NCBI GenBank assembly: GCA_963789985.1
Contig: CAWBNA010000019.1
Span: 464,464-528,463 of the forward strand
DNA length: 64,000 bases
Direction of reading: 5' to 3'
DNA from: an uncultured Bacteroidales bacterium
GTDB taxonomy: Bacteria; Bacteroidota; Bacteroidia; Bacteroidales; VadinHA17
Positions 28,130-56,533 of the stretch are shown in pieces; within the stretch, counting starts at the first letter, position 1; every line of letters starts with the position of its first letter. The translations under genes and the position numbers were made by a program. The notes below the pieces were generated by a model. The model ran no database searches and was not told the origin of the DNA. It saw only the letters and a program-made list of their open reading frames with translations.

Positions 28130-28202
28130 GCCTCCTTAGCTCAGTCGGTAGAGCAGCTCATTCGTAATGAGCAGGTCGTGGGTTCGAGTCCCATTGGAGG
28201 CT
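28130..28202 (+). tRNA. tRNA-Thr (anticodon CGU)
   Basis: The cloverleaf was folded by hand: acceptor GCCTCC(T)/(T)GGAGGC, D-arm GCTC-AGTCGGTA-GAGC, anticodon arm GCTCA-TTCGTAA-TGAGC with CGT central, and T-arm GTGGG-TTCGAGT-CCCAT. No CCA is encoded. Confidence 0.9.
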
Positions 28203-28203
28203 C
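28182..28203 (+). repeat. attL-like core (3' end of tRNA-Thr)
   Basis: It is identical to 48354-48375 over 22 nt. Confidence 0.75.
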
Positions 28204-28465
28204 CTAAAACGATCTCATTTTTTTCATGACCGCTTAAAATCAAGGATTTCAGGCGGTTTCCTTTTTTACAGGTACTCAAAATGTACGCCAGAACTCCTAG
28301 AATAGGGTGAAAAATCGATACCTCTTTATAAAATGCTAATTAGGTATCGCTAAACTCTGTAACTCTCTGTTTATTTTGCATTTGATTGCAGCCTTTTGCA
28401 TGATGGCGAATGCTTAATTGAGGCGAAATTTGTACATAAAAAGAGTCCTTTAAATATATGCTATT

Positions 28466-29515
28466 ATGAAAAACAAAATTGTTACTCACTTTTATGTGAG
28501 AGAAGAGAAGAAGGATAAAAAAGGAGAAGTCCCTATTTATCTGAGAATCACCATCAATGAAGAAAGAGCAAGCCTTTCAACCGATCGAAGAGTAAATCCT
28601 GAATTATGGGATAAAGCTGCTGAGGGAGTTGCTGGGAGAAGTGAAATTGCAAGAGTAATCAATACCTCACTGAATAATCTTCTAAGTAAGGTAGAAAAGT
28701 ATTTCGGTAACCTTGATGTCAAAGATGAACTTGTTTCCGTTCATCAGATTATAGCTGAACTTAAAGGTAAGGGGATTAATCAAATGACAGTTATTAAGGC
28801 GTATGAATATCAAATTAAAAAGATGGAAGAACTTTCAGGAATTGATTATGCAATTACCACTATCAATAAGTACAGATATTCTTTGAATAGTCTAAAAAGG
28901 TTTTTGAAAACTGAGTTCAACAAAACTGATATTAGACTTTGCGACTTGGATTATAGATTCATTGAACGCTATCACAAGTATTTAAGGACATCTGAAAACT
29001 TAATGCATAATTCAGCAGTTAAGAACATTAAGAATCTTTTCAGAATAATAAATATTTCTATTACAAACAAGTGGATTAATATTAATCCATTTAAAAGCTT
29101 TAGTTGTAATTTTATTGATGCTAATAGGGGTTATTTGACTGAAGAAGAGATTGAAGCATTGTACAAAAAGGAATTTGCAATTAAGAGACTAGCCAAAGTA
29201 AGGGATGTTTTTATCTTCCAAATTTATACAGGGCTATCATATTGCGATTTGGCAAGATTAACTGATGATAGCATCGAAATCGGCATTGAGGGCAAACGAT
29301 GGATCGTATTAAATCGTAAGAAAACAGGAACTAGATCAAGCATTCCAATTTTACCAAGAGCTCAGGAAGTCCTGGATAATTACAAAACTGATCCATTATG
29401 TATCTCCGATCATAAACTTCTTCCGGTCTGCACCAATCAGCGAATGAACGGGTACCTGAAAGAGATCGCAGATTTATGTGAAATTAAAAAGACTCTAACA
29501 ATTACAAAAAGCTGA
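28466..29515 (+). pseudogene. Bacteroides-type tyrosine recombinase/integrase, 3'-truncated (catalytic HxxR and Tyr regions missing)
   Basis: The N-terminal arm-binding and SAM-like domains are typical (KIVTHFYVREEKKDKKGEVPIYLRITINEERASLST...). The first catalytic Arg region RDVFIFQIYTGLSYCDL is present. The ORF stops at ...EIKKTLTITKS, where homologues normally continue with the LTxHxxRHT box. Confidence 0.65.
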
Positions 29516-34414: not shown

Positions 34415-34445
34415 TTGATTTTGGTTTAAACAAGGTGTAACTTTG
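34415..34445 (+). promoter_or_regulatory. promoter, TTGAC-N18-TAACTTTG class, upstream of FISUMP lipoprotein
   Basis: The sequence reads TTGAT tttggtttaaacaaggtg TAACTTTG, preceded by TATAATAAAA, 46 nt before the ATG at 34491. Confidence 0.5.
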
Positions 34446-34490
34446 AATATGACCAACTCTGAGAGATATTTAATTCTAAAAAATACTACC

Positions 34491-35804
34491 ATGAAATGCT
34501 TTTTAAAAATCATGATCATTGTTTTTCTTTCCGCAGGTTTTATTGCAACAATTCAGTCCTGTAAGAAGAAAGACACAATACCTTCTGTGACGACTGTGAG
34601 CGTTTCGGGTATTACCCAGACAAGTGCAGTATCGGGAGGTAATGTGACAAGCGATGGAGGAGCTGATGTAACTGCCAAAGGAGTATGCTGGGGAACCTCT
34701 CACAATCCGGCAACAGGCTCTAACGAAACAGACGACGGCAGCGGTACCGGTTCTTTTACCAGTAATTTGACAGGCTTGACGGCAAATACCACTTACTATG
34801 TTCGTGCGTATGCCACCAATAGTCAGGGAACAGGTTATGGAAATGAAGTTACGTTTAATACAAGCCAGATAGCCCTAGCAACTCTTACAACAATAGATGT
34901 GACTGGAATTACACCAACGACAGCATCCTCAGGAGGAGATATTGCAGATGACGGAGGCGGAACAATCACCGCCAGTGGTGTCTGCTGGAGTAATGCGCAA
35001 AATCCGACAATAGCCAATAATTTTACGACAGATGGATCAGAATCAGGCGGCTATTATAGCACCATAACCGGCTTAGCTGCAAACACGACTTATTATGTTC
35101 GAGCCTATGCTACCAACACTGCAGGAACTGCCTATGGGAACCAGGTGAGTTTTACGACCACAGGAATCAGTGCAATTATTTTTAATTCTAATTTGACTTA
35201 TAGCACTGTTTCAGATATTGATGGGAATGTTTATAAGACTATCCAGATTGGCACTCAGACTTGGATGGCAGAAAACCTCAAAACAACTAAATATAATGAT
35301 GGTACTCCTATACCTAATGTCACCGATTTAAGTGCTTGGGACACCCTTGCTTCCCCAGGATATTGCTGGTGCCTTAATAATGCTTCAACATACAAAGCTG
35401 TTTACGGCGCTTTATATAACTGGGATGCAGCAAACATGACAAAATTATGCCCTGCAGGATGGCATGTTCCATCATCTGATGAGTTGAATACATTAGTGAC
35501 GTACCTTGGTGGGGTTGATGTTGCCGGTGGTAAGCTGAAAGAAACCGGTACTACTCATTGGAACAGCCCAAACGGAGATGCCTCAAATGAATCAGGCTTT
35601 ACTGGTCTTCCTGGTGCAGAGCGTGACATTACTAACGACTTTGGAAATGGTACTTGGATTGGCACCTTTGGTAATTGGTGGAGTACGACTTACGCGGATC
35701 CTGTGAGTCACTATGACCTAGAATTGAATTGGGATGATGGTTCGGCTTGGCTTGGTGGTATGCCCAATGGCGAAGGACTTTCCGTTCGCTGTATACAGAA
35801 TTAG
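34491..35804 (+). CDS. FISUMP-domain lipoprotein with two FN3/Ig-like repeats
   Basis: The ATG at 34491 gives MKCFLKIMIIVFLSAGFIATIQSC (lipobox-like Cys). There are two ~85-aa repeats (...GVCW.TSHNP...TANTTYYVRAYATN..GT.YGN.V.F.T). The FISUMP core DIDGNVYKTIQIGTQTWMAENLKTTKYNDG...ALYNW...CPAGWHVPS...GLSVRCI follows. Confidence 0.8.
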   Translation: MKCFLKIMIIVFLSAGFIATIQSCKKKDTIPSVTTVSVSGITQTSAVSGGNVTSDGGADVTAKGVCWGTSHNPATGSNETDDGSGTGSFTSNLTGLTANTTYYVRAYATNSQGTGYGNEVTFNTSQIALATLTTIDVTGITPTTASSGGDIADDGGGTITASGVCWSNAQNPTIANNFTTDGSESGGYYSTITGLAANTTYYVRAYATNTAGTAYGNQVSFTTTGISAIIFNSNLTYSTVSDIDGNVYKTIQIGTQTWMAENLKTTKYNDGTPIPNVTDLSAWDTLASPGYCWCLNNASTYKAVYGALYNWDAANMTKLCPAGWHVPSSDELNTLVTYLGGVDVAGGKLKETGTTHWNSPNGDASNESGFTGLPGAERDITNDFGNGTWIGTFGNWWSTTYADPVSHYDLELNWDDGSAWLGGMPNGEGLSVRCIQN

Positions 35805-37880: not shown

Positions 37881-38624
37881 ATGACTGAAATAATTGAACT
37901 ATTCGAGAAAAAAGTATTTGAGATTTATTCAATCGAAAAGTTAACAGCTCTTCAAGACAATGATTACTCTTTTGAAGGAGTAAATGTTCTAGAAATGATT
38001 AGCCTATCAAGGAAATATTCTCTCCCAAATCCGTCTTTCAACGATATGAAACACACATGGGATATAATAAATTGTAATTCAGACTTAAGATATTTTACAG
38101 CGTTGCTCTTCCTCTACAAACCCTTTATTAACAATCCAATTAATGAAAGCGTATATTTTGAGGAACGCCTTCTCTTTACATACTTTCAAAATAGGTATGA
38201 CCATAGATACAGCCAATTTGCGAGTATCTGCTTTGAAAAACTATATAATTATTGTGATAGAATTGGGGACGTATTGGCGAACCGTTATTTCGATAAATTT
38301 CAGAATCCTCAAAATATTTATTTTCCTAAAGTAATCGATAAATTAAGATTAGATAGTAATATTCAGAATGACTCATTTTTTAAAGAAATAATCATTTATC
38401 GAGATAATGAATATAAGGAGCATAATGAAAAAAGAAGAGAAATTGTTCATTATCATCAATTTGAGACAAATTACAGGTATGATTTCACCCTTAATTCAAC
38501 GAATAAAGAAGAAATAACTAAACTTTGGGATTTTAAAAAAAACCTTCCTGAATATTTTAAAAAACAGCTTGATAAATCCAACCAATTGTTTTTAAATACA
38601 TTTAACTTCCTTAATAAAAGATAA
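37881..38624 (+). CDS. HEPN-motif protein (Rx4H: RREIVH), unknown subfamily
   Basis: A 247-aa, very AT-rich, all-helical-looking ORF. RREIVH is encoded at nt 38433-38450. FEKLYNYCDRIGDVL resembles Abi-type HEPN families. No partner gene is apparent. Confidence 0.45.
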   Translation: MTEIIELFEKKVFEIYSIEKLTALQDNDYSFEGVNVLEMISLSRKYSLPNPSFNDMKHTWDIINCNSDLRYFTALLFLYKPFINNPINESVYFEERLLFTYFQNRYDHRYSQFASICFEKLYNYCDRIGDVLANRYFDKFQNPQNIYFPKVIDKLRLDSNIQNDSFFKEIIIYRDNEYKEHNEKRREIVHYHQFETNYRYDFTLNSTNKEEITKLWDFKKNLPEYFKKQLDKSNQLFLNTFNFLNKR

Positions 38625-40078: not shown

Positions 40079-41506
40079 CACTGTTATCCGATTAATAATT
40101 TAGATTCGTAATTGACTCCCATAAGTATCTGATTATCAATCATCATATCTTTCATTTAAAAATTGACCCCCTGCATATTAAAGCATAATTGTAACCCGGG
40201 AGGGATTGGTTTACTCTTAAATCTTCTTTTTGTGCTCCGCAGCAGCTCCTTAACATCCAGCATGCTTATTAAGTGTATCCGGACCAATGATGCTACCACT
40301 GAAAAGGCTTTCTTTGCCTGCGCGATCTTTTGAGTCACAGTCAATAGCAGTTGGGCTATTAATGTGCACCAGACCTGAGTATAGATGGCATTTTCGTTCT
40401 CTCCGTAAAAGTAATGTAACTGGAAGTTCTGTTTCATTTTCTTGAACAGTATCTCAATACCCCATCTTTTCTTGTAAAGTAATGCCACATCTTCAGCTTC
40501 AATATCAAAGTTATTTGTCAGAAAATCAAAATATCGGTTCTGTTCATCTTGATAACTGACCTTTCTCAGTTTCATTTTGAGTTTGGTCTTAATATCTTGC
40601 TTGCCGTCTTCTTTTTCAGGATGATATTCCAGTTCGATGATCTCATCCCTTAACACTTTTGCCTGCCCTGCCTTACGATAATGAACTCGTTTAACCTCTT
40701 TAACCGTAAATACAGCATTCCTTTTCATCCGGGTGACAAAATATACCTGTTGTGTGGTCCAGAGCGTAAACTGTTGATAATAATTATAGGCTTTATCAAA
40801 GACTATCATGCTGTTAGATATCAGTTCCAGGCTTTTTAAGAACTTTTGATCATTGACCTTTGCTGCTGTCATTTTAATAAACCTACCAACCGATTGAACC
40901 GCATCAATAAGCATATGGACCTTCATTCCGCCTTTCTTCCTGCCATCTCCTTTGGGATTACGGCCAACTCCCTTTAATATGTCACTAAATAACCGGATAG
41001 TCGTTGAGTCGATAATAAGTACCTCTTTAAAAGTCAATCCAAATGTCCGGCTGTCCGATAAAAAATTCTGATAATGTTTTATCAGGCTAAAATACAGATC
41101 TTCAAAAAACTTGCTGCTCCTGTTGCGTAAACCATCACATGCCGTACTCTTAGCTGGTGCCTGATCCATACCAAGATGATTAAGCTTGCCGCCCATTGCA
41201 CGCAGACCTTCGCAGACTTCAGTCATCGAATCGCACCGGCTTAATATCCCGAACAGCATCGTAAAAAGGTGAGTCCGCGTTTTAAATGACTTGTAATAAT
41301 AATCACTCTCGTGCTTCTTAATCAACCCCTTTATATTGACCTTGTCAACTAAATTCATTATCTGTTTGAAAATCGGCTGTCCGACTAATTTTATTTCTGT
41401 AATTTTACCCATGTTGTACTTGATTTTATGCAAAGACCAAATTACAACATCGGGGGGAACCCTCATGGGATACCCCCGTTTTTATTATTTTAGTCGGACA
41501 CTAGTG
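40079..41506 (-). mobile_element. IS4-family insertion sequence (1428 bp)
   Basis: It has imperfect terminal inverted repeats, CACTGTTATCCGATTAATAAT (left) and CACTAGTGTCCGACTAAAATAAT (right, reverse complement). It is flanked by a 9-bp direct repeat ATATTTTAT and holds a single transposase ORF. Confidence 0.85.
40156..41412 (-). CDS. IS4-family DDE transposase
   Basis: The ATG at 41412 (MGKITEIKLVGQPIFKQ...) starts the ORF. DDE-type motifs are LIIDSTTIRL and MIVFDKAYNYY, and the Y-x2-R-x3-E-x6-K signature is YKKRWGIEILFKKMK. Confidence 0.85.
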   Translation of the reverse strand: MGKITEIKLVGQPIFKQIMNLVDKVNIKGLIKKHESDYYYKSFKTRTHLFTMLFGILSRCDSMTEVCEGLRAMGGKLNHLGMDQAPAKSTACDGLRNRSSKFFEDLYFSLIKHYQNFLSDSRTFGLTFKEVLIIDSTTIRLFSDILKGVGRNPKGDGRKKGGMKVHMLIDAVQSVGRFIKMTAAKVNDQKFLKSLELISNSMIVFDKAYNYYQQFTLWTTQQVYFVTRMKRNAVFTVKEVKRVHYRKAGQAKVLRDEIIELEYHPEKEDGKQDIKTKLKMKLRKVSYQDEQNRYFDFLTNNFDIEAEDVALLYKKRWGIEILFKKMKQNFQLHYFYGENENAIYTQVWCTLIAQLLLTVTQKIAQAKKAFSVVASLVRIHLISMLDVKELLRSTKRRFKSKPIPPGLQLCFNMQGVNF

Positions 41507-41515: not shown

Positions 41516-42468
41516 TCAAAATCAGCAACCAATATTACTGACTAAGGACAAAAATTATAAGGATATCTTCTCTAATAGTTCAATAATAAATTGGTTAACA
41601 AAAAATGAGTTAAAGTTTGCTACAGCTATAATGTGTGCGCCAAAACAAGGAATCTTTCATTTAGATTTTACAAACTATAACACAATAAATATAGATTGTG
41701 ATTGTATAGATGCTATACCAGATGGATTAAAAAACTTATTTCTTCGAGAATATTTTGAGATCAATAAACGATTTACACCAATTGGTTTTCGTGCATGGCA
41801 TAGGCAACCCATGCCTGACTTAATGGCATACGAATTTTCTTCTTACAATGATTCGATTGAATATTTCAACAAGCTTTATGATAATTTTAAAATATCGGAC
41901 CATCTTTTATTAAGGACATGCAATTATTTTGTCAAAGCTATAATGCATTGGAGCAATCAGATTTATATTGAAGAGGCTATTGCGAATTCCTTTTTCTGCC
42001 TTGAAGGTTGTTTACATCTGATTCAGAAAAAGTATGGCGATCACAACTTAAAGCTTAATATGAAGCTTTTAAATGAAGTATTTAAGAATGATATACCCTA
42101 TGGAGAAAATCTCTTTGAGTTTATCAAAGAAGGATATGAGAAAAGAAATACATTAGTTCATGCAGAGCCAGAATGGGGAGCTGATTGGAGTCCATTTTTG
42201 ACAGCAGAAGATTTTTATGAGTATTTTAAACTTTGTCGAGAATTACTTAATTTCATTCTCATTGATAGACAATTAGATGATTTATAATATAAACTACAAG
42301 CAATACATGGTATAAGCAAAATCAGGGCATGCAGCAGGTTTAAACGTTTTACCCCGCACTAAAGTTTGTTCTCCGAAATAGATATGTGCACCAAAGTCCA
42401 ACAATACCAATACATCCGACTTTTTTATACAAGGCTTTAAAGCCATTCATTTTTATTTAATAATATCT

Positions 42469-42532: not shown

Positions 42533-42991
42533 ATGAAACAATCAGATATAAATATATCCGAGGTAAAACTTATTTACCGAACTAAGATCAAAGCTTCAGA
42601 GAGGCTGCAGGTAAAATCCTCAAAGGATGCATTTGATATCTTTATGGAGCATTGGGATCTTGATTCAATAGAACATGTCGAGGAATTTAAGCTCATGCTA
42701 TTAACTAGATCAAATAAAGTCCTGGGAATAGCATCAATCTCAAAAGGCGGGATTTCTGGCACAGTCACGGATGTGAGGGTCATTTTGCAGTATGCAATTA
42801 AAGCCAATGCCAGCGGCATCATAATTTGTCATAACCACCCATCAGGCAATTTAAAGCCAAGCGAATCTGATCTGACAATCACAAGAAAGGTTAAGGATTC
42901 AGGTGCTTTGATGGATATTCAGTTATTAGACAATCTGATAATCATCCCGGAAGGCAGGTATTATAGCATGGCGGATGAAGGAATAATTTAG
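42533..42991 (+). CDS. radC: RadC-like JAB/MPN-domain protein
   Basis: A 152-aa ORF. The JAMM motif IIICHNHPSGNLKPSESD (HxHx7Sx2D) is present, and the size is that of mobile-element RadC proteins. Confidence 0.8.
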   Translation: MKQSDINISEVKLIYRTKIKASERLQVKSSKDAFDIFMEHWDLDSIEHVEEFKLMLLTRSNKVLGIASISKGGISGTVTDVRVILQYAIKANASGIIICHNHPSGNLKPSESDLTITRKVKDSGALMDIQLLDNLIIIPEGRYYSMADEGII

Positions 42992-43281: not shown

Positions 43282-43899
43282 ATGTTACCAGGACCAACAA
43301 TTATAATATCTTGCCCATTATGTGGGCAGTATGCAAAGAAAAAGACCTTAATCTCAGGCAATACCTTTGGTGCAGTTTTATGGTCTGACGGCAAAAGAAT
43401 AGCACCGATGTTACCAGAATTTCCAAGCTTAGTTCTTTGTAAGAAATGCGATCAGTTTTATTGGGTAAAAAATGCTAATAAAGTTGAGGAAATCAGCAAT
43501 TACTCAGAAATAAAAGATAAATGGGGGAATATTGATTTCGTTGAATTCCCGACCTTTCATCAGTATTTTATTGCTTTAGAAACGATTTCTAACGAGAAGT
43601 TTATCAGAATAAACATCTGGTGGAGCTTTAACGATTATTTCAGGAATAATCATGAAAATGATATTACACCGGATATGCAGAAGCTGAATACTAAAAACTT
43701 AATTGCTTTATTGAAAATTCTGGATGAATCTGACAACAATGAGCTGCTAATGAAGGCTGAGGTACTTCGTAATTTAGGACAGTTTAAAGAGAGCAAGCAG
43801 CTATTTGACAGAATAAGTGATGACGATATGGGCTGGGTAAAAAAGAAACTTCTGGTAGAGATAAATAAGCATAATACACAGGTGTTTCAATTGTATTAA
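43282..43899 (+). CDS. hypothetical protein with N-terminal zinc-ribbon (CPLCG...CKKCD)
   Basis: A 205-aa ORF with two CxxC pairs 39 residues apart and a helical C-terminus. No family was recognised. Confidence 0.45.
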   Translation: MLPGPTIIISCPLCGQYAKKKTLISGNTFGAVLWSDGKRIAPMLPEFPSLVLCKKCDQFYWVKNANKVEEISNYSEIKDKWGNIDFVEFPTFHQYFIALETISNEKFIRINIWWSFNDYFRNNHENDITPDMQKLNTKNLIALLKILDESDNNELLMKAEVLRNLGQFKESKQLFDRISDDDMGWVKKKLLVEINKHNTQVFQLY

Positions 43900-44274
43900 A
43901 TATGAATGCCGGTATGTTAAAATTCCTACCTATTCTAACCCGTTTTCAACCAGAATGGATTTATACAGATTTAATATTATAGCTAAATAGCATAAATCAT
44001 TGCTCTCAGATTCTGATTAGTAGTGGCTGGAAAATCAGGTTGAACTGAGCACTCAGTACCGGAGTACTTTGAGCATATGATTCCGAATGCGATTGAGCAT
44101 CTGAAACCTGAACATAAATATTACAATATCAAAGGGGAATGGTAAATAAATTTGATGTATATATGAATATTCTTTCAGTTTATTCTTATTCTTATTGAAT
44201 TGTTCAATATTTCCAAACCAGCACTAATCACCATTACATATTCCAATATTTAAGCATAGCTGTTTAAAATAAAA

Positions 44275-44360: not shown

Positions 44361-44921
44361 ATGAAAACATTTTGTAAAGCCAAAATAATTGTCGTATTAC
44401 TGTTACTTTGTACAAATGGTATACAGGCACAAACGGCACAGATAAAACTTTATCAGGTTGTCTCAGCGGAAAATTTAAATTCAAAACCAGGATTGATAAA
44501 CATCACTGAGGTTAATATGGGAATTGGATTGTTCCAAACTAACCGGGATTACTCAAAAAGGTTTTATAATATTTCAGACATTTTTGGGATTGGCATCCTA
44601 AAAAATCTGATAGGAGGGATCGGCATAGGAGTTTCATTATATAACGGCGGCAGTCTGATTCCTCTTTTCGTGGATCTTAGGTATTTTATAAACATCGGGA
44701 AAATAAGTGTTTTTGCTTTTGGTGATGGTGGAATACTTTTGAACTCTGCCAAAACCACTGGTGGAACAAAAATTCTGATAAACCCGGGCGCAGGAGTGGC
44801 TTTACCTGTCAGCAAAAATCTGTCAGTAAACCTTGGGGCAGGCCTGTTCGTTAACCTTATGAAAGATTATGCTACCGACAGCTTCGTCAGTATTAAGGCT
44901 GGAATGACTTATTATTTTTAA
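44361..44921 (+). CDS. small outer-membrane beta-barrel-like protein
   Basis: A 186-aa ORF with signal peptide MKTFCKAKIIVVLLLLCTNGIQAQ. It has Gly-rich amphipathic strands and a C-terminal GMTYYF (terminal Phe). Confidence 0.5.
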   Translation: MKTFCKAKIIVVLLLLCTNGIQAQTAQIKLYQVVSAENLNSKPGLINITEVNMGIGLFQTNRDYSKRFYNISDIFGIGILKNLIGGIGIGVSLYNGGSLIPLFVDLRYFINIGKISVFAFGDGGILLNSAKTTGGTKILINPGAGVALPVSKNLSVNLGAGLFVNLMKDYATDSFVSIKAGMTYYF

Positions 44922-45023
44922 AAAAAGAATATTAAAGATGGTTAAGTATATAATCACTGATGGGCAATTTAGTCCGGCCAGCTATGGTCAAGGTCATTGG
45001 CATCTCCTCTTAGATAAATAAAA

Positions 45024-45054
45024 TTGCTATAAGCCTTTTTATAAATTAAATTTG
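45024..45054 (+). promoter_or_regulatory. promoter, TTGCT-N18-TAAATTTG, upstream of TIR gene
   Basis: The sequence reads TTGCT ataagcctttttataaat TAAATTTG, preceded by GATAAATAAAA, 24 nt before the ATG at 45078. Confidence 0.45.
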
Positions 45055-45077
45055 ATACTGAAATAAATAAACATCAG

Positions 45078-47222
45078 ATGTCAGCCATTATTGAAGGATA
45101 TAATTATGACATCTTCATCAGCTATCGCCAGAAAGACAACAAACACGATGGCTGGGTAACAGAGTTTGTAGATAACCTGAAGGGAGAACTTGAATCGACA
45201 TTTAAAGAGGAAATTAGTGTTTACTTCGACATCAACCCACATGATGGACTTTTGGAGACACATGATGTTGATGCCTCTTTGAAAGATAAACTTAAGTGCC
45301 TTGTCTTTATCCCAATTATTTCCCGCACATATTGTGATCCCAGGTCATTCGCATGGGAGCATGAGTTCAAAGCTTTTATTAATGAAGCCTCCCAAGATCA
45401 GTTTGGATTAAAGGTAAAACTGCCTAATGGGAATGTTACAAGTAGGGTATTGCCAGTTCAGATACATGAACTTGATGCTGGAGACAGGACGATTATTGAA
45501 AGTAAACTTGGAGGATTTTTAAGAGGTATTGAGTTCATCTATAAGGAACCCGGAGTCAATCGACCCCTTATGGCAAATGAAGATCATCCAGATAATAATC
45601 TCAATAAAACTTTCTATCGGAACCAAATAAACAAAGTTGCTAATGCTGTAAAAGAGATTATTACTGCAATAGCACATCCTGGACAAAAGACTGAAGGGAT
45701 TTTAAAAGAGGTTGTTAATATAAAACCTAAAAAGGCAAAAAATCTGAAAATAAAAACCATTGCTGTATCTGTTATAATACTTTTACTTATTATTCTTGGT
45801 TATTACTTAATAACCACACTTACTAAACAAAAAGAACAGCGTGCAAAATCTGTTGCTGTTTTACCTTTTATAAACGACAGCCCTAATGATTCGACCACTT
45901 ACTTCATGGATGGCGTTATGGAAGAAATACTCACGAATCTGCAGACAGTCAAGAATCTCAGGGTTATTTCCCGTACCTCTGTTGAACAATATAGAAAACA
46001 AACCAAATCCGTCCATGAAATTGCGAAAGAACTGGGTGTGAATTACATTGTGGATGGTAGCGGACAAAAATCCGGCAATAGTTTTCGTCTAAGGGTAAAA
46101 TTAATTAGGGCAAATAAAGAAAGTAATATCTGGGCAAAGTCATATGATCAGGATAATCCTGAAGCTAAAGATTATTTCAGCATACAGAGCCAGATAGCCC
46201 AGGCAATAGCAACACAATTAGAAGCAGTAATAACGCCTCAGGAGAAACAGCTTATTGAAAAAACACATACAGCAAACCTATCCGCTTACGATGCTTTTCT
46301 TAAAGGTGAATTTTATCGGAGGAAACGAACTCAAAATGATCTCAAGACTGCAATGAAATATTATCAGATTGCTTTGGAGAAAGACCCTAAATATGCCCGA
46401 GCTTATTGTGGTATTGCTTACGGCTGGTCTGAGTTTTTGGAAATGGGTTATATATCTCCATCCGAGGGATTACCAAAAGAGTACGAAGCATTAATGACTG
46501 CAGAAAAACTCGACAGTACTCTTGCTGATGTTCATTATGGTCTTGCTGTTTACACATGGAACAAATGGGATTGGAAAAGCAGTGACTCTGAATTTCAAAA
46601 AACTATCAGAATTAATCCCAATAATGCTGAAGCATATGCAGGCTACTCACAATTTCTAATTGCATTAGGTCGTTCGGAAGAAGCAATGAAACAGATAGAT
46701 TTGGCGCTTAAACTGGATCCAAATAATCCACTGATTAATGGTCGCTTCAGCTTTGATTTATTATTTGTGCAGCGATATGATGAGGCTATCTCTGTTAGTC
46801 GTGAAGCGCTTAAAAAAGATCCTGCCTGTGGTTCCGGATTATATGCTTTACAGTTTGCCCTTCATTTGACCGGCAGATATGATGAAGCGTTGGAACTTTG
46901 GAAGACAAACTATTTCGTAGGCTATCCAGGTTTTGTTCATGCTTTTGATAAAGGTTATGCTAAAGCAGGCTATATAGGAGCACTAAGTTTTGAGGCGGAT
47001 ACTCTTGTTGCACAGTCAAAAGCTGCATATATTAATCCATTTGATATTGCTATTCTTTATGTCTGTTCCGGGAATAAGGAGCGAGCTTTAGATTATTTGG
47101 AAGGTGGTTTTGAAGTACATGATGTTAATTTGACTTTTTTGTCATTGCCAATATTTGACTGTCTGCATAACTCACCTCGCTATCAAGCTTTATGTAAGAA
47201 AATGAACCTTCCTTATAGATAA
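45078..47222 (+). CDS. TIR-domain / single-TM / TolB_N-like / TPR-repeat protein
   Basis: A 714-aa ORF. The N-terminal TIR signature is YDIFISYRQKDN...LVFIPIISRTYCDPRSFAWEHEF, with no signal peptide. The TM helix is IKTIAVSVIILLLIILGYYLITTL. The next domain is SVAVLPFINDSPNDSTTYFMDGVMEEILTNL...VISRTS...LGVNYIVDGSGQKSGNSFRLRVKLI (COG5616/TolB-N-like). About 300 aa of TPR-like repeats follow. Confidence 0.7.
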   Translation: MSAIIEGYNYDIFISYRQKDNKHDGWVTEFVDNLKGELESTFKEEISVYFDINPHDGLLETHDVDASLKDKLKCLVFIPIISRTYCDPRSFAWEHEFKAFINEASQDQFGLKVKLPNGNVTSRVLPVQIHELDAGDRTIIESKLGGFLRGIEFIYKEPGVNRPLMANEDHPDNNLNKTFYRNQINKVANAVKEIITAIAHPGQKTEGILKEVVNIKPKKAKNLKIKTIAVSVIILLLIILGYYLITTLTKQKEQRAKSVAVLPFINDSPNDSTTYFMDGVMEEILTNLQTVKNLRVISRTSVEQYRKQTKSVHEIAKELGVNYIVDGSGQKSGNSFRLRVKLIRANKESNIWAKSYDQDNPEAKDYFSIQSQIAQAIATQLEAVITPQEKQLIEKTHTANLSAYDAFLKGEFYRRKRTQNDLKTAMKYYQIALEKDPKYARAYCGIAYGWSEFLEMGYISPSEGLPKEYEALMTAEKLDSTLADVHYGLAVYTWNKWDWKSSDSEFQKTIRINPNNAEAYAGYSQFLIALGRSEEAMKQIDLALKLDPNNPLINGRFSFDLLFVQRYDEAISVSREALKKDPACGSGLYALQFALHLTGRYDEALELWKTNYFVGYPGFVHAFDKGYAKAGYIGALSFEADTLVAQSKAAYINPFDIAILYVCSGNKERALDYLEGGFEVHDVNLTFLSLPIFDCLHNSPRYQALCKKMNLPYR

Positions 47223-48353
47223 TTATTGTTAATATCAACTTTGCATATCTTTATCTGGAAGCCAAAAAGGCTGTTGCCGGGCAGAAGAATAATTGATTTA
47301 CAATCAAAGAATGGCAAACACACAAATAAACATAGGAAGGTTGACTGTGTATTGATTAGGGGTGGCTAATAATAAAGGAAGACAAGGAAATTGATCCCCA
47401 GCTCCATTGGAAAGAATTCTTTTTCCCCTCATAAGTAAAAAACCTGAAAGGGAACCCAGATTCTTATCGTAATATATCCCCTGAAACCTCTGTTAACCCT
47501 TAATTCGGCAGACATATCACCTTGGGTGGATGTGCACCTTTAACACCACATCTTTATCCTTTACAACAGGGGGTAAAAGGCTATTTATTATCCTTGCTTC
47601 CCGTACGGAAGCATTACTTTGAGACAGGTTTCTATTGGCAAAATTCCTTAGGAGTTTTATGAAATCTATATGCTTAAATATATCTCCTTGAAGGTGGTAT
47701 CTACATCAATGTGAGAAGATATTCCTTTATAATAGGGCAAAGAACGTCTGTAAGAATTGATTTCTTGAAAAGATACCCTAAATTTGCGCATCAAGTTGAA
47801 GAAAGATGCAGATAGAGAATTGGGGAATAACTTATTAAAAACTGAAATTATGGAAAAATTATCAACAAGAGAAAGTCATTTAAAAAGAGTGGGAAACAAG
47901 AGAAAAGCAATGATGAAAGGTAAAGAATATCATTTCTCAAACAAGAAGTCTTCTTCAAAGTTTAGAAAAATTCTGGAAAACAACTGCTTAATAATAAAGC
48001 AATTAAGTGGAGAATCACAGAATAGGCTTTTGTTATTATAGTGTAAGTACTCTGTATTTGATTGATATTGTTAAGGATATTGATAGCCCATGTCGGTTTA
48101 GAAGTATTGGAAGCCACCCAGAATAAGAGCGTAAAATGCCGAAACAAAATATGGGAATATACTGTAAAGAGTATCTGACACAGAATGAGAATTTCTATCA
48201 ATAGCCAGAAATAAGGTTACGCAAAAAAAGCTGTTGCCAATCAAAAGAATAATTAACTTTGTCATTGCAGATGTAAGCAGAGAGGAGTATTTTTCGAGAC
48301 CTGTAAAAGCTGTATCTCTGTAGTAAATTGATTATAAGCGAAGTGAAAAAATA

Positions 48354-48375
48354 GTTCGAGTCCCATTGGAGGCTC
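48354..48375 (+). repeat. attR-like copy of tRNA-Thr 3' end
   Basis: GTTCGAGTCCCATTGGAGGCTC is identical to 28182-28203. No tRNA body lies upstream of it. Confidence 0.75.
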
Positions 48376-48563: not shown

Positions 48564-49241
48564 ATGAACCAAAAAATAAAAGTCATCATCACCGGATCCA
48601 CCGGAATGGTCGGAGAAGGCGTCTTTATTGAATGCCTAAAGCATCCGGATGTGGAATCGGTGCTGGTAATCAACAGACGACCTTGCGGCATCACTCACCT
48701 GAAACTAAAGGAGATCATTCATGTCAACTTTTTTGATCTTCTCCCTATTGAATCAAAGTTATCAGGTTATGATGCCTGTTTCTTTTGTGCCGGAGTGTCA
48801 TCCGTGGGTATGAAGGAGGCGGAATACACCAGAGTCACCTATGACCTGACCATGAGTTTTGCTCAGACCCTTTGCAAATTAAATCCTGACATGACCTTCA
48901 CATACGTTTCAGGTGCTGGTACCGACAGCAGTGAAAAGGGAAAAATAATGTGGGCAAGGATCAAGGGCAAAACGGAGAACGACCTGATGAAGCTTCCGTT
49001 TAAGAATATGTTTGCCTTCCGTCCGGCATTCATGAAGCCAGTTAAAGGACAAAAAAATGCTCCGTCATTCTACAAATATATCCTGTGGCTATATCCCGCT
49101 TTACATTCGTTATTTCCTCAATACTTTGGCACCCTGAGCGATGTTGGGCTTGCAATGATCAATTGTGTCATATTCGGCACCGGAAAGAAGGTACTGGAAG
49201 CAAAAGACATTGCCGCGTTGGCGAATAAAACTTCTTATTGA
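48564..49241 (+). CDS. NAD(P)H-binding atypical SDR/epimerase-family protein
   Basis: A 225-aa ORF with an N-terminal Rossmann motif KVIITGSTGMVGEGV. Confidence 0.65.
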   Translation: MNQKIKVIITGSTGMVGEGVFIECLKHPDVESVLVINRRPCGITHLKLKEIIHVNFFDLLPIESKLSGYDACFFCAGVSSVGMKEAEYTRVTYDLTMSFAQTLCKLNPDMTFTYVSGAGTDSSEKGKIMWARIKGKTENDLMKLPFKNMFAFRPAFMKPVKGQKNAPSFYKYILWLYPALHSLFPQYFGTLSDVGLAMINCVIFGTGKKVLEAKDIAALANKTSY

Positions 49242-50786: not shown

Positions 50787-50964
50787 AGATTTTCTTTCAT
50801 TTAAATTAATATCTGTCTCAATTTCATAACTTATTATTGTACAATGGTAATTGGTTCTTCGTATAGGATTGTGTTTAATATTTTTATATTTATTCTATAA
50901 CAATCCTTTATGGAGTTTGTTTGTTATCAGCGGTTTTAAAAAATGGCAAGAACATTCCACACTG

Positions 50965-51142
50965 AATCCTGACATGACCTTCACGTACGTTTCAGGCGCA
51001 TGTACCGACAGCAGTGAAAAGAAGGTACTGGAAGCAAAAGACATTGCCGCATTGGCAAATAAAACTCCTTAATGACATACCTGTTTCTTTCTAAACTTTA
51101 CCACTATGAGCCAGACCACTGCCATTTAAATCAAAATGGGGA
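50965..51142 (+). pseudogene. internally deleted duplicate fragment of the 48564..49241 gene plus its 3' flank
   Basis: 50965-51021 matches 48882-48938, and 51022-51142 matches 49188-49309. The two pieces are joined at a GAAAAG/GAAAGAAG microhomology. Listed ORF 50851..51072 is a chimera of these pieces. Confidence 0.75.
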
Positions 51143-51775: not shown

Positions 51776-53142
51776 TTAAGGTTTGTACGGAAGGTTGATC
51801 TTATGAAATAGATCCTGATAGCGAGGCTCATCATGAACAAATTCATAGATAGGGTCTCTTATATTACCGGATAAATTTGGATCATGAACTTCATAATCTT
51901 TTTCCAACATTTCTAATGTTCGCTCCTTATTACCGGCACAAGCATAAAGTTGTGCAATTTCGCAAGGTAAAATAAATTTTGTCTTTGACTGCTTTACAAG
52001 GCTGTCAGCCTGAAGATTCAATGCACAAGTTAAACCTCCGTTAGCAAAACCCTGATCAAAAACATTTGCATAGCCTTTGAAATTGGTGCTGTAATCCACT
52101 TCCCATGCTTCAAGTTCTTCACTATACCTTCCAACCCCATGAAGTGCAAGTGGAAGATTATCTAAGACTTCAACATTACCCGGATCAATTTTTAGTAACT
52201 CCTGTAATAACTTTATTGCTTCATTATATCTACCAGTATAAGACAATATTAACCCATTACCTGTTTTCAGACCGTTGTTCATCGGGTCCAGTTTTAAAAC
52301 CATCACGTGCTGCTCCAATCCTTCTTTGGGGCGTCCTAAAAGAATTAATAAAGCTGCATACCACACATGTACATCTGCATTGTTGGGATTAAGAAATAGC
52401 CAGGAACAATAAGAACAAGTATTATAACAGATGCAACAATTGTTTTTGAGATAAGCTTTTTTGGATGTTCCGGTTTTTCTCTAACAACTTCTTTTGAAAC
52501 TTCTCCGACCTGCTGATTATGTTTCTTTATCACTGCAATAATCTCCTTTATTGCGTTTGCAACCTTGTTGATCTGATCCCGATAGAAGGTTTTATTGAGA
52601 TTGTCCTGAGGGTGGTCTTCATTTGCTCGCAATGGTCGGTTAACACCTGCTGACTTATAAATAAATTCTATACAACGAAGAACTCCACCAAGTTCATTTT
52701 CAAGAAGGGTTTTATCTTCAGGATCGAGATCATGAATTTTGATTGGCAATATCCTGCTGGCTACATTTCCACTGGGCAGTTTTATCTTCAATCCGAACTG
52801 ATCCTGTGAGGCAAGCTCTACAAATGCCTTGAACTCATGTTCCCATGCGAATGATTTGGGATCACAATATGTGCGGGAAATGATTGGGATAAAGACTAGG
52901 CACTTCAGTTTATCTTTCAATGAGGTATCAACGTCATGTGTCTCCAAAAGTCCATCATGAGGATTGATATCGAAATAAACGCTGATCTCTTCTTTGAAAG
53001 TTGATTCGAGTTCCGTCTTCAAAGCCTCTACAAACTCACTGACCCACCTGTCGCCTTTGTTGTCTTTCTGGCGGTAGCTGATGAAGACCTGCCTTGCCGG
53101 CAGGCAGGTGTCGTAATTATATCCTTCTATGATGCTTGACAT
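51776..53142 (-). pseudogene. second TIR-TM-TPR paralogue, inactivated by an internal out-of-frame deletion
   Basis: 52345..53142 encodes the TIR and TM parts and is highly similar to 45078.. residues 1-245. 51776..52366 encodes the last ~190 aa of the TPR region. The two join at a single TTAAT (52388-52392, minus strand) in different frames. The equivalent segment in the intact copy is 805 bp, between two TTAAT sites at 45807 and 46612. Confidence 0.8.
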
Positions 53143-53686: not shown

Positions 53687-54328
53687 TTATTTTTTCCCGA
53701 ATAAATAACCAATGGATATTTGTAAAACCTTATTGTTGATTTTATATCCTTCTGAAGTATCAGAGGTAATATTTGCCAAACCCAAATCATAGCCGATCCC
53801 TACTGAGACTCTTCTGAAAATTACTCCTGCACCAATCCCAACGCCATAATCTAATCGTTTTAATAAATCATTTTGTGCATTATTACCCCATTTAATGGTT
53901 TCAGAACCTTTTACACCAGCATCGACCCAGCTATCTTTCCCGCTTAAACCTACGCCAATATATGGACCTAATGTGCCGTATCCTTTAATCTTGTTACTTC
54001 CAAATCCAAACACCGCCTTAAGGTTTAAGGGTACATCTAAATAATACAAGACATATGTTTCTGAATAGTCAGTTTCTTCATATTTGGAACCTTTCATATT
54101 GAAGAGAATTCCAGGTTCAAGAAATAGTGATTCACCTGACAAAGGGATTCCAACTGTTGCACCTAAATGGATTCCGGGTATACTCTTATCATTATAAGTT
54201 TTTGTGTTAGCCTTTTCAAGAGTATTAGATATGTTTAACCCGCCTTTTATCCCAAAGGTTTGGGCATATGAGCCAATCCGTGGTATGATGATTATAACCA
54301 CCAATAAAATTTTTAGTGTGTTTTTCAT
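53687..54328 (-). CDS. outer-membrane beta-barrel protein (OmpA-N/OMP_b-brl-like)
   Basis: A 213-aa ORF with a signal peptide. FGIKGGLNISN...YYLDVPLNLK...GVGIGAGV...ISIGYLFGKK is a typical porin-family 8-10-strand barrel. Confidence 0.65.
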   Translation of the reverse strand: MKNTLKILLVVIIIIPRIGSYAQTFGIKGGLNISNTLEKANTKTYNDKSIPGIHLGATVGIPLSGESLFLEPGILFNMKGSKYEETDYSETYVLYYLDVPLNLKAVFGFGSNKIKGYGTLGPYIGVGLSGKDSWVDAGVKGSETIKWGNNAQNDLLKRLDYGVGIGAGVIFRRVSVGIGYDLGLANITSDTSEGYKINNKVLQISIGYLFGKK

Positions 54329-55204: not shown

Positions 55205-55983
55205 CTAATTCTTTATAAAGCGAACGGAATAACCTTCATTGAAGCCAATACTGGAGATAGAAGCAGAAGCCTCAAAGTTATTCATTTCAAATAGATAGCT
55301 GTTGCTATTTACTTGATCCACAACAGTTGAACTCCACCAATTACCGTAAATACCAATCTTGTCACCACTACTAAAGTCCGCAGTGAAGTCAAGCTCTGAA
55401 CCTGGAAGAGCAGTAAAGCCTGATTCATTTGTTGCTCCTTCGTTCGGGCTGTTCCAATGAGTAGTACCGGTTTCTTTTAACTTACCACCAGCAACGTCAA
55501 CTCCCCCAAGATATGTTACTAATGTGTTGCATTCATCATATGATGGAACATGCCACCCTTCCGGGCATAATTTACCTGTGTTTACTGTGTACCAATTATA
55601 TAAAGCGCCATAAACAGCTTTGTACGTTGAAGCATCATTAAGGCACCAACAATATCCTGGAGACGTGAGGGCATTCCACGCACTTAAATCTGTAACATTA
55701 GGTACAGATGTACCATCATTGTATTTGGTAGTTTTGAGGTTTTCTGCCATCCATGTCTGAGTGCCAATCCGAATAGTTTTATAAACATTCCCATCAATAT
55801 CTGAAACAGTGCCATATGTCAAATTAGAATTAAAAATAATTGCACTGATTCCTGTGGTCGTAAAACTCACCTGGTTCCCATAGGCAGTCCCTGCGCTGTT
55901 GGTGGCATAAGCACGAACATAGTAAGTGGTATTTGCCGTCAAGCCTGTCAAATTACTGGTAAAAGAACCGGTACCGCTGCCGT
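55205..55983 (-). pseudogene. 5'-truncated FISUMP paralogue (no signal peptide, one repeat module lost)
   Basis: Homology to the island copy starts abruptly at 55983. A 62-nt stretch there is identical to 34735-34796. One hybrid FN3-like module sits where the island copy has two. The stop codon and 3' flank are near-identical to 35800-35860. Confidence 0.75.
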
Positions 55984-56533
55984 TGAATTTTATTAAAGTT
56001 CGTCCAAAATGCACTTGGGTGCATAGCAATTTTTTGTCAAAAACTTTAAATTTTTGAACAAATTGCTAAACTTTTCAGCCAAACTTTAAATTTTTGGACA
56101 TTTTACCACTATCAGGATAGCATTGGAATGTTTATTAACCAAAATTTAAAAGGCAGGTATCAGACCTGTTGTAAAGGTTTCTATATTGGATACTCATTTG
56201 ATATTGAATCCTGATGTGTTCAACATCTGCTTCAAGGACGACTTTACGAAGTTAGCTGGATTGGTAGCTGAGAAGATGTATAGGGGAAGATCCTATTTAA
56301 AAGCCGCCAGAGAAGGAATGTGGAAAAAAGAACAAGCCCGATCTGTGGAAATTACCAAATCCTGTACCGCCATGGAACCGGAGATACATTAAAAAGGAAA
56401 ATGGTACCTTTCACCATAAACAAGGTAGATGCCAATTCATTTGCGCACAATTTTTAATATTACTCTATGAAAATATACAAATACTTAAATTACATCACTT
56501 TCTAGGGTGCTGGTGGTGCTGTTGCCAATTTAC

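Follow-up and report, generated by a model that had tools for sequence, protein, structure and literature searches.

To our knowledge, what is currently understood of bacterial TIR domains concerns almost exclusively their part as NAD+-cleaving effectors that act in the cytoplasm in phage defence. Most of those tested to date process NAD+ enzymatically, and in TIR NADases the catalytic glutamate sits at the start of the helix that follows strand C. Fusions of TIR to TPR, WD40 and transmembrane (TM) segments are already known in bacteria at the level of annotation. A single-pass layout with the N-terminus inside (N-in) and an N-terminal cytoplasmic output domain is that of the CadC/ToxR-type regulators (CadC, PDB 3LYA/3LY7-9), where the output domain is a winged helix and the CadC sensor consists of a TolB-N-like alpha/beta part followed by a helical subdomain. 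A homologous TolB-N-like and TPR region is found in the HilA/EilA regulators and in the TIGR04510 cyclases, which are cytoplasmic and carry winged helix-turn-helix (wHTH) or cyclase heads. The gene considered here lies in a 64,000-nucleotide (nt) stretch of DNA from an uncultured Bacteroidales bacterium (GenBank contig CAWBNA010000019.1, positions 464,464 to 528,463; the whole stretch is called the window below). Its 714-aa product shares the layout and the order of sensor parts with CadC, and differs from the CadC/ToxR type by a predicted TIR-like head, a long TPR solenoid and membership in a strongly paralogous family; its predicted TM helix would place in the periplasm the scaffold that is cytoplasmic in HilA/EilA and the cyclases.

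Our reading, to which we give a probability of about 0.55, is that the 714-aa protein is an inner-membrane receptor in which a divergent TIR-like head is joined to a CadC/TolB-like and TPR sensor, and that it belongs to a large paralogous family. The features of the intact gene are the following (aa, amino acids):

45078..47222, plus strand: intact gene, a 714-aa open reading frame (ORF) for a divergent TIR-like head, a TM helix, a TolB-N(CadC)-like module and TPRs, in this order
45078..45677, plus strand: predicted cytoplasmic flavodoxin-like, divergent TIR-like head, aa 1-200 (AlphaFold2 (AF2), Foldseek, sub-threshold profiles)
45363-45365, plus strand: codon of E96, within the head
45756..45818, plus strand: predicted single TM helix, aa 227-247, N-in (sole hydropathy peak and flanking charge)
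45843..46220, plus strand: predicted TolB-N/LpoB/PelC/FlgO/CadC-like alpha/beta module with a linker helix, aa ~256-381 (AF2, Foldseek, PDB profile)
46290..47219, plus strand: predicted periplasmic TPR solenoid, aa ~405-714, with a TPR end-of-group motif (Pfam, NCBIfam)

Translation of the ORF confirms the motifs DIFISYRQKDN, FIPIISRTYCDPRSFAWEHEF, AVLPFINDS, VISRTS and LGVNYIVDGS. An identical protein (P0001) is encoded on an 814-kb contig of a metagenome-assembled genome (MAG), and full-length homologues with identities of 56-81% number over 120. Hydropathy analysis revealed neither a signal peptide nor any other hydrophobic segment at the N-terminus; 467 residues lie C-terminal of the TM helix. 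In 235 family members, the 15 residues on each side of the helix carry a net charge of +3.8 on the N-terminal and +1.5 on the C-terminal flank, with the N-terminal flank being the more positive in 197 members and the C-terminal one in 18. By the positive-inside rule applied to these flanking charges, the head is assigned to the cytoplasm, and the protein is shown, as far as prediction from sequence goes, to be a type-II (N-in, C-out) single-pass inner-membrane protein. The order of parts, the missing signal peptide and the approximately 470 periplasmic residues had been read from the letters in an earlier note on this DNA, and all three are borne out, as is the cytoplasmic N-terminus on which that note had asked for a topology check.

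The periplasmic part falls into two modules. An AF2 model of aa 252-422, built from an alignment of 31 sequences, has a predicted local distance difference test score (pLDDT) of 92 for the alpha/beta module, and a Foldseek search of PDB with this module gave 46 matches at E<=1e-3. They are led by GNA1162, FlgT, the TolB N-domain, PelC and LpoB (E 1e-7 to 1e-5), and the periplasmic domain of CadC is among them (3lya/3ly7/3ly9, E between 1e-4 and 3e-4), with a query-normalised TM-score (TMq) of 0.55-0.61; a sequence profile search of PDB matched FlgO at E=1.2e-3. The matched proteins are without exception periplasmic. On the model, the module thus belongs to the TolB N-terminal/LpoB/PelC/FlgO-like fold. 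It is followed by TPRs, with Pfam TPR_19 (E=1.4e-15), TPR_11, TPR_14 and TPR_2 matching at E 1e-15 to 1e-12 and the significant repeats lying within aa 405-609, while NCBIfam TPR_END_plus at aa 655-706 (E=4e-7, 29.9 bits) stays slightly under its curated cut-off of 32. Other NCBIfam TPR matches include assembly factors of the PilW, Tgl and BepA type. The NCBIfam HilA/EilA model aligns to aa 253-609 (E=2.3e-15), which begins past the TM helix, and the protein has no wHTH match; the TIGR04510 cyclase model matches at E=3.9e-10. Relatives bear the JGI names ‘TolB-like’, ‘adenylate cyclase’ and ‘serine/threonine-protein kinase’. The HilA/EilA and TIGR04510 matches, together with these names, support a TolB-N-TPR scaffold with interchangeable heads. 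Both the TolB-N/COG5616-like module with TPRs and the wHTH, cyclase and kinase heads carried by the same scaffold elsewhere had been proposed before, and agree with these results.

In an exhaustive search with aa 1-225 as a query, the relatives, clustered at 50% identity, fall into 1107 clusters when E<=1e-3 is required and into 523 when the limit is E<=1e-30. The best 150 relatives share 60-81% identity with the head, and their lengths span 246-1001 aa. Most family members have one TM helix at approximately aa 225-260, and a minority none. Ectodomains consist mostly of TPRs, with PD40/WD40 propellers in 8 of 63 and FGE-sulfatase domains in 2 of 63. When members are compared in pairs, the median identity amounts to 68% in the head and 21% in the ectodomain. 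At least 576 genomic matches were found in contigs of one genome per species, and the neighbourhood counts given here rest on 80 related loci retained from them. A single MAG holds at least 4-10 copies (single MAGs supply 4-5 of the 80 loci), and tandem arrays of two or three copies are seen at 19 of the 80. The relatives all stem from MAGs of uncultured Bacteroidales/Rikenellaceae, with soil, fen and sediment as the sources. Because the head is frozen, the ectodomains are diversified and the paralogues are many and often tandem, the family looks like a receptor repertoire rather than a proven phage-defence module.

Seven proteins of ~680 aa (P0137, P0144, P0148, P0184, P0223, P0259 and P0262) have no TM helix, and in P0137, P0223, P0259 and P0262 the AVLPF motif directly follows the head at approximately aa 223; soluble, presumably cytoplasmic versions of the family therefore exist. 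Three contigs of 2-4 kb (L027, L039 and L051), binned as Atribacterota, Dojkabacteria and Methanofastidiosum, encode heads 76-79% identical to the query; most likely they are mis-binned Bacteroidales contigs and not true cross-phylum occurrences. Literature searches revealed no description of this family, and a search for COG5616/TolB was uninformative. In public databases the members are called ‘TolB-like protein’, ‘adenylate cyclase’ or ‘hypothetical’, names that miss the head.

The head is best called TIR-like, a probable divergent TIR subfamily; this label was chosen because it fails the formal Pfam TIR_2 test. We are fairly confident that it belongs to the TIR superfamily as a divergent branch. 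The AF2 model of the head (pLDDT 81, predicted TM-score 0.81) shows a beta/alpha alternation like that of the flavodoxin/TIR fold. The best Foldseek match in PDB is the TIR of Roq1 (E=2e-3, probability 0.98), the L7 TIR is matched with a target-normalised TM-score (TMt) of 0.52, and the top 40 contain the TIRs of L7, TLR5, IL-1RAPL2, SARM1, TLR1 and MAL. Pfam TIR_2 is found at E<1 in 35 of 38 diverse heads (best 2.6e-4), and any other family in two at most. Weak matches point the same way, namely the NCBIfam FxsC ‘TIR-like’ model on the head (E=0.023) and PADLOC ThsB on a decayed paralogue in the window (E=0.0046). A profile search of PDB listed the L6/L7 TIR at E=0.65-0.81, which is non-significant and stands among unrelated noise. 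When an alignment of heads was compared by hhalign with one of 116 canonical TIR_2 domains, residues 8-197 of the head and 1-134 of TIR_2 proved co-linear from end to end, with a score of 33.4 (P=1.1e-4). Controls scored 14.5 (reversed TIR), 10.5 and 18.4 (two unrelated alignments) and at most 22.6 (20 column shuffles), and the highest probability among these 23 was 4.9%.

The same genomes of Bacteroidales contain canonical TIR_2-TM-sensor proteins, and the two kinds of head replace one another on one body, as seen from a comparison of bodies in three proteins at related loci:

L055:3121-5703: canonical TIR_2 head (Pfam E=2.7e-21)
L050:6001-8796: divergent head
L066:6001-8790: divergent head

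The body, which consists of TM, FGE-sulfatase and alpha/beta-hydrolase parts, is 37% identical between L050 and L055 over 729 aa (E=1e-153), and L066 clusters with both. Canonical proteins such as that of L055 thus have the same N-terminal head position, TM helix and extracytoplasmic body, and the D[IV]FISY motif is shared. The divergent head differs from them in length (~200 aa against ~135 aa, the ~60 extra residues being aligned as three insertions) and in its own motifs, which are YRQKDN, NPHDGLLET, PIISRTYCD, AWExEF, GVNRPL and YRxQxNK. D11, S15, Y16, D20, W93 and E96 are invariant, and the loop at aa 54-62, which comes after strand B, is nearly invariant as ‘NPHDGLLET’ yet modelled with pLDDT<50.

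The earlier note had nominated the glutamate of a WEHEF motif as the NADase catalytic candidate. Of the two glutamates in this motif, E96 remains a candidate, as every one of the 150 cluster representatives has it, and E94 drops out, with conservation in only 59%. In the AF2 head model E96 lies at the N-terminus of a predicted helix (94-106) after strand C (74-81). We infer from sequence that the head may be competent to process NAD+. As a group, the TIR NADases (SARM1, L6/L7/Roq1, AbTir, ThsB) are its best structural and sequence neighbours, with which it would have in common an invariant glutamate at a helix start after strand C and a flexible, conserved loop after strand B. The head differs from them in being tethered to the membrane with a periplasmic sensor and in having no ThsA-like or other effector partner.

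In the mechanism proposed here, a ligand in the envelope or periplasm would alter the oligomeric state of the ectodomain; the ligand is most plausibly a peptide or protein because the ectodomains are of TPR, propeller and FGE-sulfatase type. The changed state would juxtapose the cytoplasmic TIR-like heads, and the assembled heads might process NAD+ via E96, giving either a nucleotide signal or NAD+ consumption; alternatively, they might bring in a cytoplasmic partner that is shared by the family and encoded elsewhere. The upstream gene for a putative outer-membrane protein (OMP), described below, is a chance neighbour outside the system. Animal Toll-like receptors offer a parallel in logic, as they combine a repeat-solenoid ectodomain, one TM helix and a TIR domain in a repertoire of paralogues with variable ectodomains and conserved heads. 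Their polarity is reversed with respect to our protein (N-terminal TIR-like head, type II), and they carry LRRs instead of TPR and TolB-N parts. The likeness is one of architecture, by analogy only: the ectodomains fold differently, and at most the TIR(-like) fold may be common to both. Should the head prove to be an active TIR, the family would represent receptor-type, outside-in TIR signalling in bacteria, and its invariant E96, the exchange of heads and the diversity of ectodomains would make a tractable system for TIR assembly triggered across a membrane. Annotation pipelines miss the head, and a dedicated family hidden Markov model (HMM) would annotate thousands of proteins.

Several results weigh against this reading. 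No curated TIR model reaches its threshold on the head, Pfam TIR_2 (PF13676, clan STIR) giving E=0.07-0.08 and 13.9-14.1 bits where 28 would be needed, and the hhalign probability amounts to 56%. In the Foldseek list no match has E<=1e-3, TM-scores are 0.38-0.52, and flavodoxin folds of the FMN-reductase type are interleaved with the TIRs; a search of the viral BFVD library gave only generic Rossmann/flavodoxin matches with an NADPH oxidoreductase on top. As for the catalytic residue, known TIR NADases have W-x3-E spacing, and the head has W93-x2-E96, one residue off; the profile alignments, unreliable across the W93-E96 loop, do not establish a column match of E96 to the NADase catalytic glutamate. 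Some family members are without a TM helix, and the TolB-N-TPR scaffold is thus not always periplasmic. Among 567 ORFs clustered from the 80 loci, no conserved neighbour was found at more than 10 loci, that is, no conserved partner. Finally, the HEPN, RadC and insertion sequence (IS) genes on the genomic island that carries the intact copy are compatible with a role in genetic conflict. Two further negative results concern the head, as a precomputed TIR family is absent from all of the 120 best homologues listed, and of the head only strand A could be aligned to an HMM made from a single narrow TIR_2 subfamily, which left the catalytic glutamate unmapped. The N-terminal TIR signature claimed in the earlier note therefore holds in part: the sub-threshold signals are concordant and Roq1 is the top structural match, while no curated threshold is reached.

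The only recurrent gene linkages of the family point towards signalling, and are located as follows:

L048, L059, L060, L071, L073, L079 and L088: orthologous gene for a B12-binding radical-SAM protein (49-55% identity) directly downstream of the TIR-like gene, same strand (7 loci)
L060 and L071 (3590-5880), also L010 and L032: genes for a SiaC-family phosphoprotein and a RyR-domain SpoIIE/PP2C phosphatase immediately upstream of tandem TIR-like genes, same strand

In L088 a 69-aa ORF lies between the TIR-like and the radical-SAM genes, and the window itself has no B12-binding radical-SAM gene. This linkage may be a link to peptide modification. SiaC and RyR-SpoIIE (PP2C) genes are found directly upstream of or near family members at 4-7 loci, which hints, for a subfamily, at a connection with partner-switch signalling. 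Both kinds of gene stand in an operon-like arrangement with the family members. A more ambitious version of the receptor reading would be that environmental Bacteroidales possess a repertoire like that of the Toll-like receptors but with unrelated ectodomains. Dozens of paralogous single-pass receptors with diversified TPR, propeller or FGE-sulfatase parts in the periplasm would signal by clustering of their heads, an almost invariant and hitherto unrecognised TIR subfamily that would make an NAD+-derived messenger feeding PP2C/SiaC circuits. Such a repertoire would serve routine environmental or cell-cell sensing and not phage defence, and its ligands would be peptides or proteins, possibly radical-SAM-modified. 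We put this version forward as speculation that is rather unlikely to hold in full.

A different role was favoured in the earlier note, namely envelope-sensing anti-phage abortive infection, in which the TPR ectodomain, maybe together with an OMP, would sense phage and the head would deplete NAD+ via the WEHEF glutamate. The best argument for a role in conflict is that the intact copy is mobile cargo, located on an island with the following features:

28130..28204, plus strand: tRNA-Thr(CGT) (ARAGORN), with the left attachment (att) core at its 3' end (28182-28203)
28466..29515, plus strand: integrase-like gene with Arm-DNA-bind_5 and Phage_int_SAM_5 domains (Pfam E=4e-15 and 2.6e-13)
37881..38624: HEPN_Cthe2314 gene
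40156-41466: IS4-family transposase gene, inserted within the island
42533..42991: RadC gene
48354..48375, plus strand: right att core, where 22 bp of the tRNA-Thr 3' end (GTTCGAGTCCCATTGGAGGCTC) recur exactly and in direct orientation (repeat search)

The tRNA is the sole one of the window, and AAA_24 and DUF3871 genes come after the integrase-like gene. A 24-nt att query gave two matches, one exact and one with 2 mismatches, with none expected from shuffles. GC content is 0.32-0.37 between the repeats, except for 0.39-0.40 at 34-38 kb, and approximately 0.41-0.45 upstream. From the tRNA, the integrase-like gene, the 22-bp repeats and the GC dip, an integrative island of ~20.2 kb (28130-48375) is delimited, and the intact TIR-like gene is its cargo; the position inside a tRNA island by HEPN and RadC genes had been noted correctly.

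The other strand of the defence reading was an outer-membrane beta-barrel gene upstream of the TIR-like gene at two loci of the window, the intact one and a decayed second copy:

44361..44921, plus strand: 186-aa secreted protein, possible small outer-membrane beta-barrel (signal-peptide-like N-terminus, YYF end)
53687..54328, minus strand: OMP_b-brl_2 outer-membrane beta-barrel gene, 213 aa, upstream of the decayed copy (Pfam E=1.3e-19)
52345..53142, minus strand: decayed paralogue, fragment 1 (head and TM helix), a 265-aa ORF (tblastn 53142-52492)
51776..52366, minus strand: decayed paralogue, fragment 2 (last ~190 aa, the TPR end) (tblastn 52393-51782)

The first ORF, also on the island, exists as claimed, and its identity as a small barrel is plausible but unproven from sequence, with no match to any OMP family model at E<=0.01 (Pfam) or E<=1 (NCBIfam). 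Its family comprises 40 matches without a Pfam family; among 24 members, weak matches to PagL, OMP_b-brl and DUF3575 (E 0.04-0.13) come from single members. The second barrel gene was found where it had been described, in the same orientation as the decayed copy at 51776..53142 (minus); besides the Pfam match, its product matches the NCBIfam TDE1717 family (E=2.1e-15, 57.2 bits), under the curated cut-off of 135. The two proteins show no homology to each other (BLASTP E=0.59; hhalign 0.3%), and the ‘two loci’ are for this reason two unrelated adjacencies. By tblastn, a homologue of the 186-aa protein occurs at one of the 80 loci, as a 33-aa fragment only, and an OMP_b-brl_2-like gene also at one. 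Three homologues of the 186-aa protein lie in unrelated neighbourhoods, unpaired with a TIR-like gene, and no upstream OMP stands beside the three closest TIR-like orthologues. With one locus in 80 for each, six empty targeted look-ups and unrelated OMPs, a conserved OMP-TIR gene pair was rejected, and so was the earlier idea of a module present twice; the adjacency of OMP-like and TIR-like genes is coincidental.

Abortive infection is in our view unlikely. It would draw on a TIR-like head with an invariant glutamate, on the island shared with HEPN_Cthe2314, RadC and the IS4 transposase, on the weak ThsB match, and on what lies near the relatives: BrxL beside a few of them, and Fic/SoFic, HEPN with nucleotidyltransferase and PADLOC ‘PDC’ candidates among 123 immediate neighbours. 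Against it, PADLOC-DB 2.0 gave for the intact protein only PDC-M71B (E=7e-4, on the TPR region), and no defence match for the upstream OMP-like ORF, 41631..42287, RadC or 43282..43899, in a scan that left out the HEPN_Cthe2314 gene; no PADLOC model is thus significant for the protein or the window neighbours tested. Over the 123 neighbours, PADLOC matches to candidate families are scattered, as counted without a formal enrichment test; no defence family is seen in more than four of them, most are ordinary enzymes, and there is no conserved partner. The OMP pairing is missing at 79 of the 80 loci and in the six look-ups. No relatives were found in the viral contigs of IMG/VR (2.9 million), and a phage origin of the family was rejected on this ground. 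A dedicated abortive-infection gene fits less well than a sensor repertoire because paralogues are many per genome and often tandem. The defence reading of the earlier note is not sustained by these results.

It is doubtful, too, that the head is a non-enzymatic TIR-like scaffold, whose clustering would recruit an unlinked adaptor or kinase in the manner of TLR-MyD88, with E96 and the other invariant residues forming an interaction surface. A partner shared by all members would fit the conservation of the whole head, including the NPHDGLLET loop, across unrelated ectodomains, and no partner gene is linked, while PP2C/SiaC genes stand beside some members. However, D11, S15, Y16, D20, W93 and E96, acidic and aromatic residues among them, are as reminiscent of a nucleotide pocket as of an interface, no partner candidate was identified, and the enzymatic nature of most bacterial TIRs tested so far also counts against a scaffold.

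Quite unlikely is a non-TIR identity of the head, which would then be an unrelated flavodoxin-like domain (nucleotide- or flavin-binding, deoxyribosyltransferase-like) with a convergent ‘DxFISY’. All TIR signals do lie under curated or conventional significance, AzoR, ArsH, WrbA, lumazine synthase and PurE folds have Foldseek scores similar to those of TIRs, and the NADPH oxidoreductase leading the viral library and the ~60 extra residues would suit such a domain. On the other hand, TIR-type families alone recur over five libraries, with TIR_2 in nearly all of the diverse heads; the hhalign alignment covers the full TIR_2 domain and exceeds all 23 controls; and a canonical TIR_2 replaces the head on an orthologous body.

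Very unlikely is a function in envelope structure or assembly instead of a receptor function, with the cytoplasmic head as a regulatory cap only. Modules of the TolB-N-like and TPR kinds are frequent scaffolds of envelope machines (TolB, LpoB, PelC/PelB, FlgT/FlgO), and in this view the protein would anchor or regulate one of them. The structural relatives of the alpha/beta module, CadC excepted, are all parts of envelope machines, the TPRs match PilW, Tgl and BepA-type factors, and Fib_succ_major/T9SS-type secreted proteins occur in the window and near 10 of the 80 loci, but an assembly factor normally exists in one copy and has conserved partners, while this family has many paralogues, hypervariable ectodomains and no conserved neighbour, the CadC sensor is among the highest TMq values (to 0.61), HilA-type regulators have the scaffold too, and the same body occurs with a canonical TIR_2 head.

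The proteins with Fib_succ_major domains at these 10 loci are secreted and often have Fn3-like repeats; their recurrence may reflect sheer abundance in these genomes. In the window they flank the TIR-like locus:

34443-35804: Fib_succ_major-domain gene
55205-56029: Fib_succ_major-domain gene

Rather than a recent duplicate, the second TIR-like copy is a paralogue broken into fragments. Its fragment 1 is 72% identical to aa 1-248 of the intact protein and has a 7-aa insertion in strand A, after YNYD; fragment 2 is 45% identical to aa 523-714. The two ORFs overlap, and approximately aa 249-522, that is, the TolB-N-like module and the first TPRs, are gone. Other remnants of decayed genes lie just outside the island as well, since the epimerase-like gene 48564..49241 is represented by two fragments (NPDMTFTYVSGA.TDSSEK and KKVLEAKDIAALANKT) within a 73-aa ORF (50851-51072).

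A promoter of the same class had also been suggested for the TIR-like gene and its upstream neighbour:

45047..45054, plus strand: candidate Bacteroidetes -7-like promoter motif TAAATTTG, 24 nt before the ATG (read from the sequence)

The 10-mer TAAATTTGAT occurs at 44147 and 45047, the first copy lying 207 nt before the upstream ORF. This one common motif stands as a candidate, whereas the two-box pattern TTTG-N17-21-TAnnTTTG was found 3 times against 3.1 expected, with no excess over chance.

Rfam gave no match over 43-49 kb. Non-coding DNA of 1.1 kb, reaching from the end of the TIR-like gene at its stop codon to the right att core, contains a 39-nt direct repeat with 79% identity (47261-47299 and 48221-48259), the two copies being 960 nt apart.

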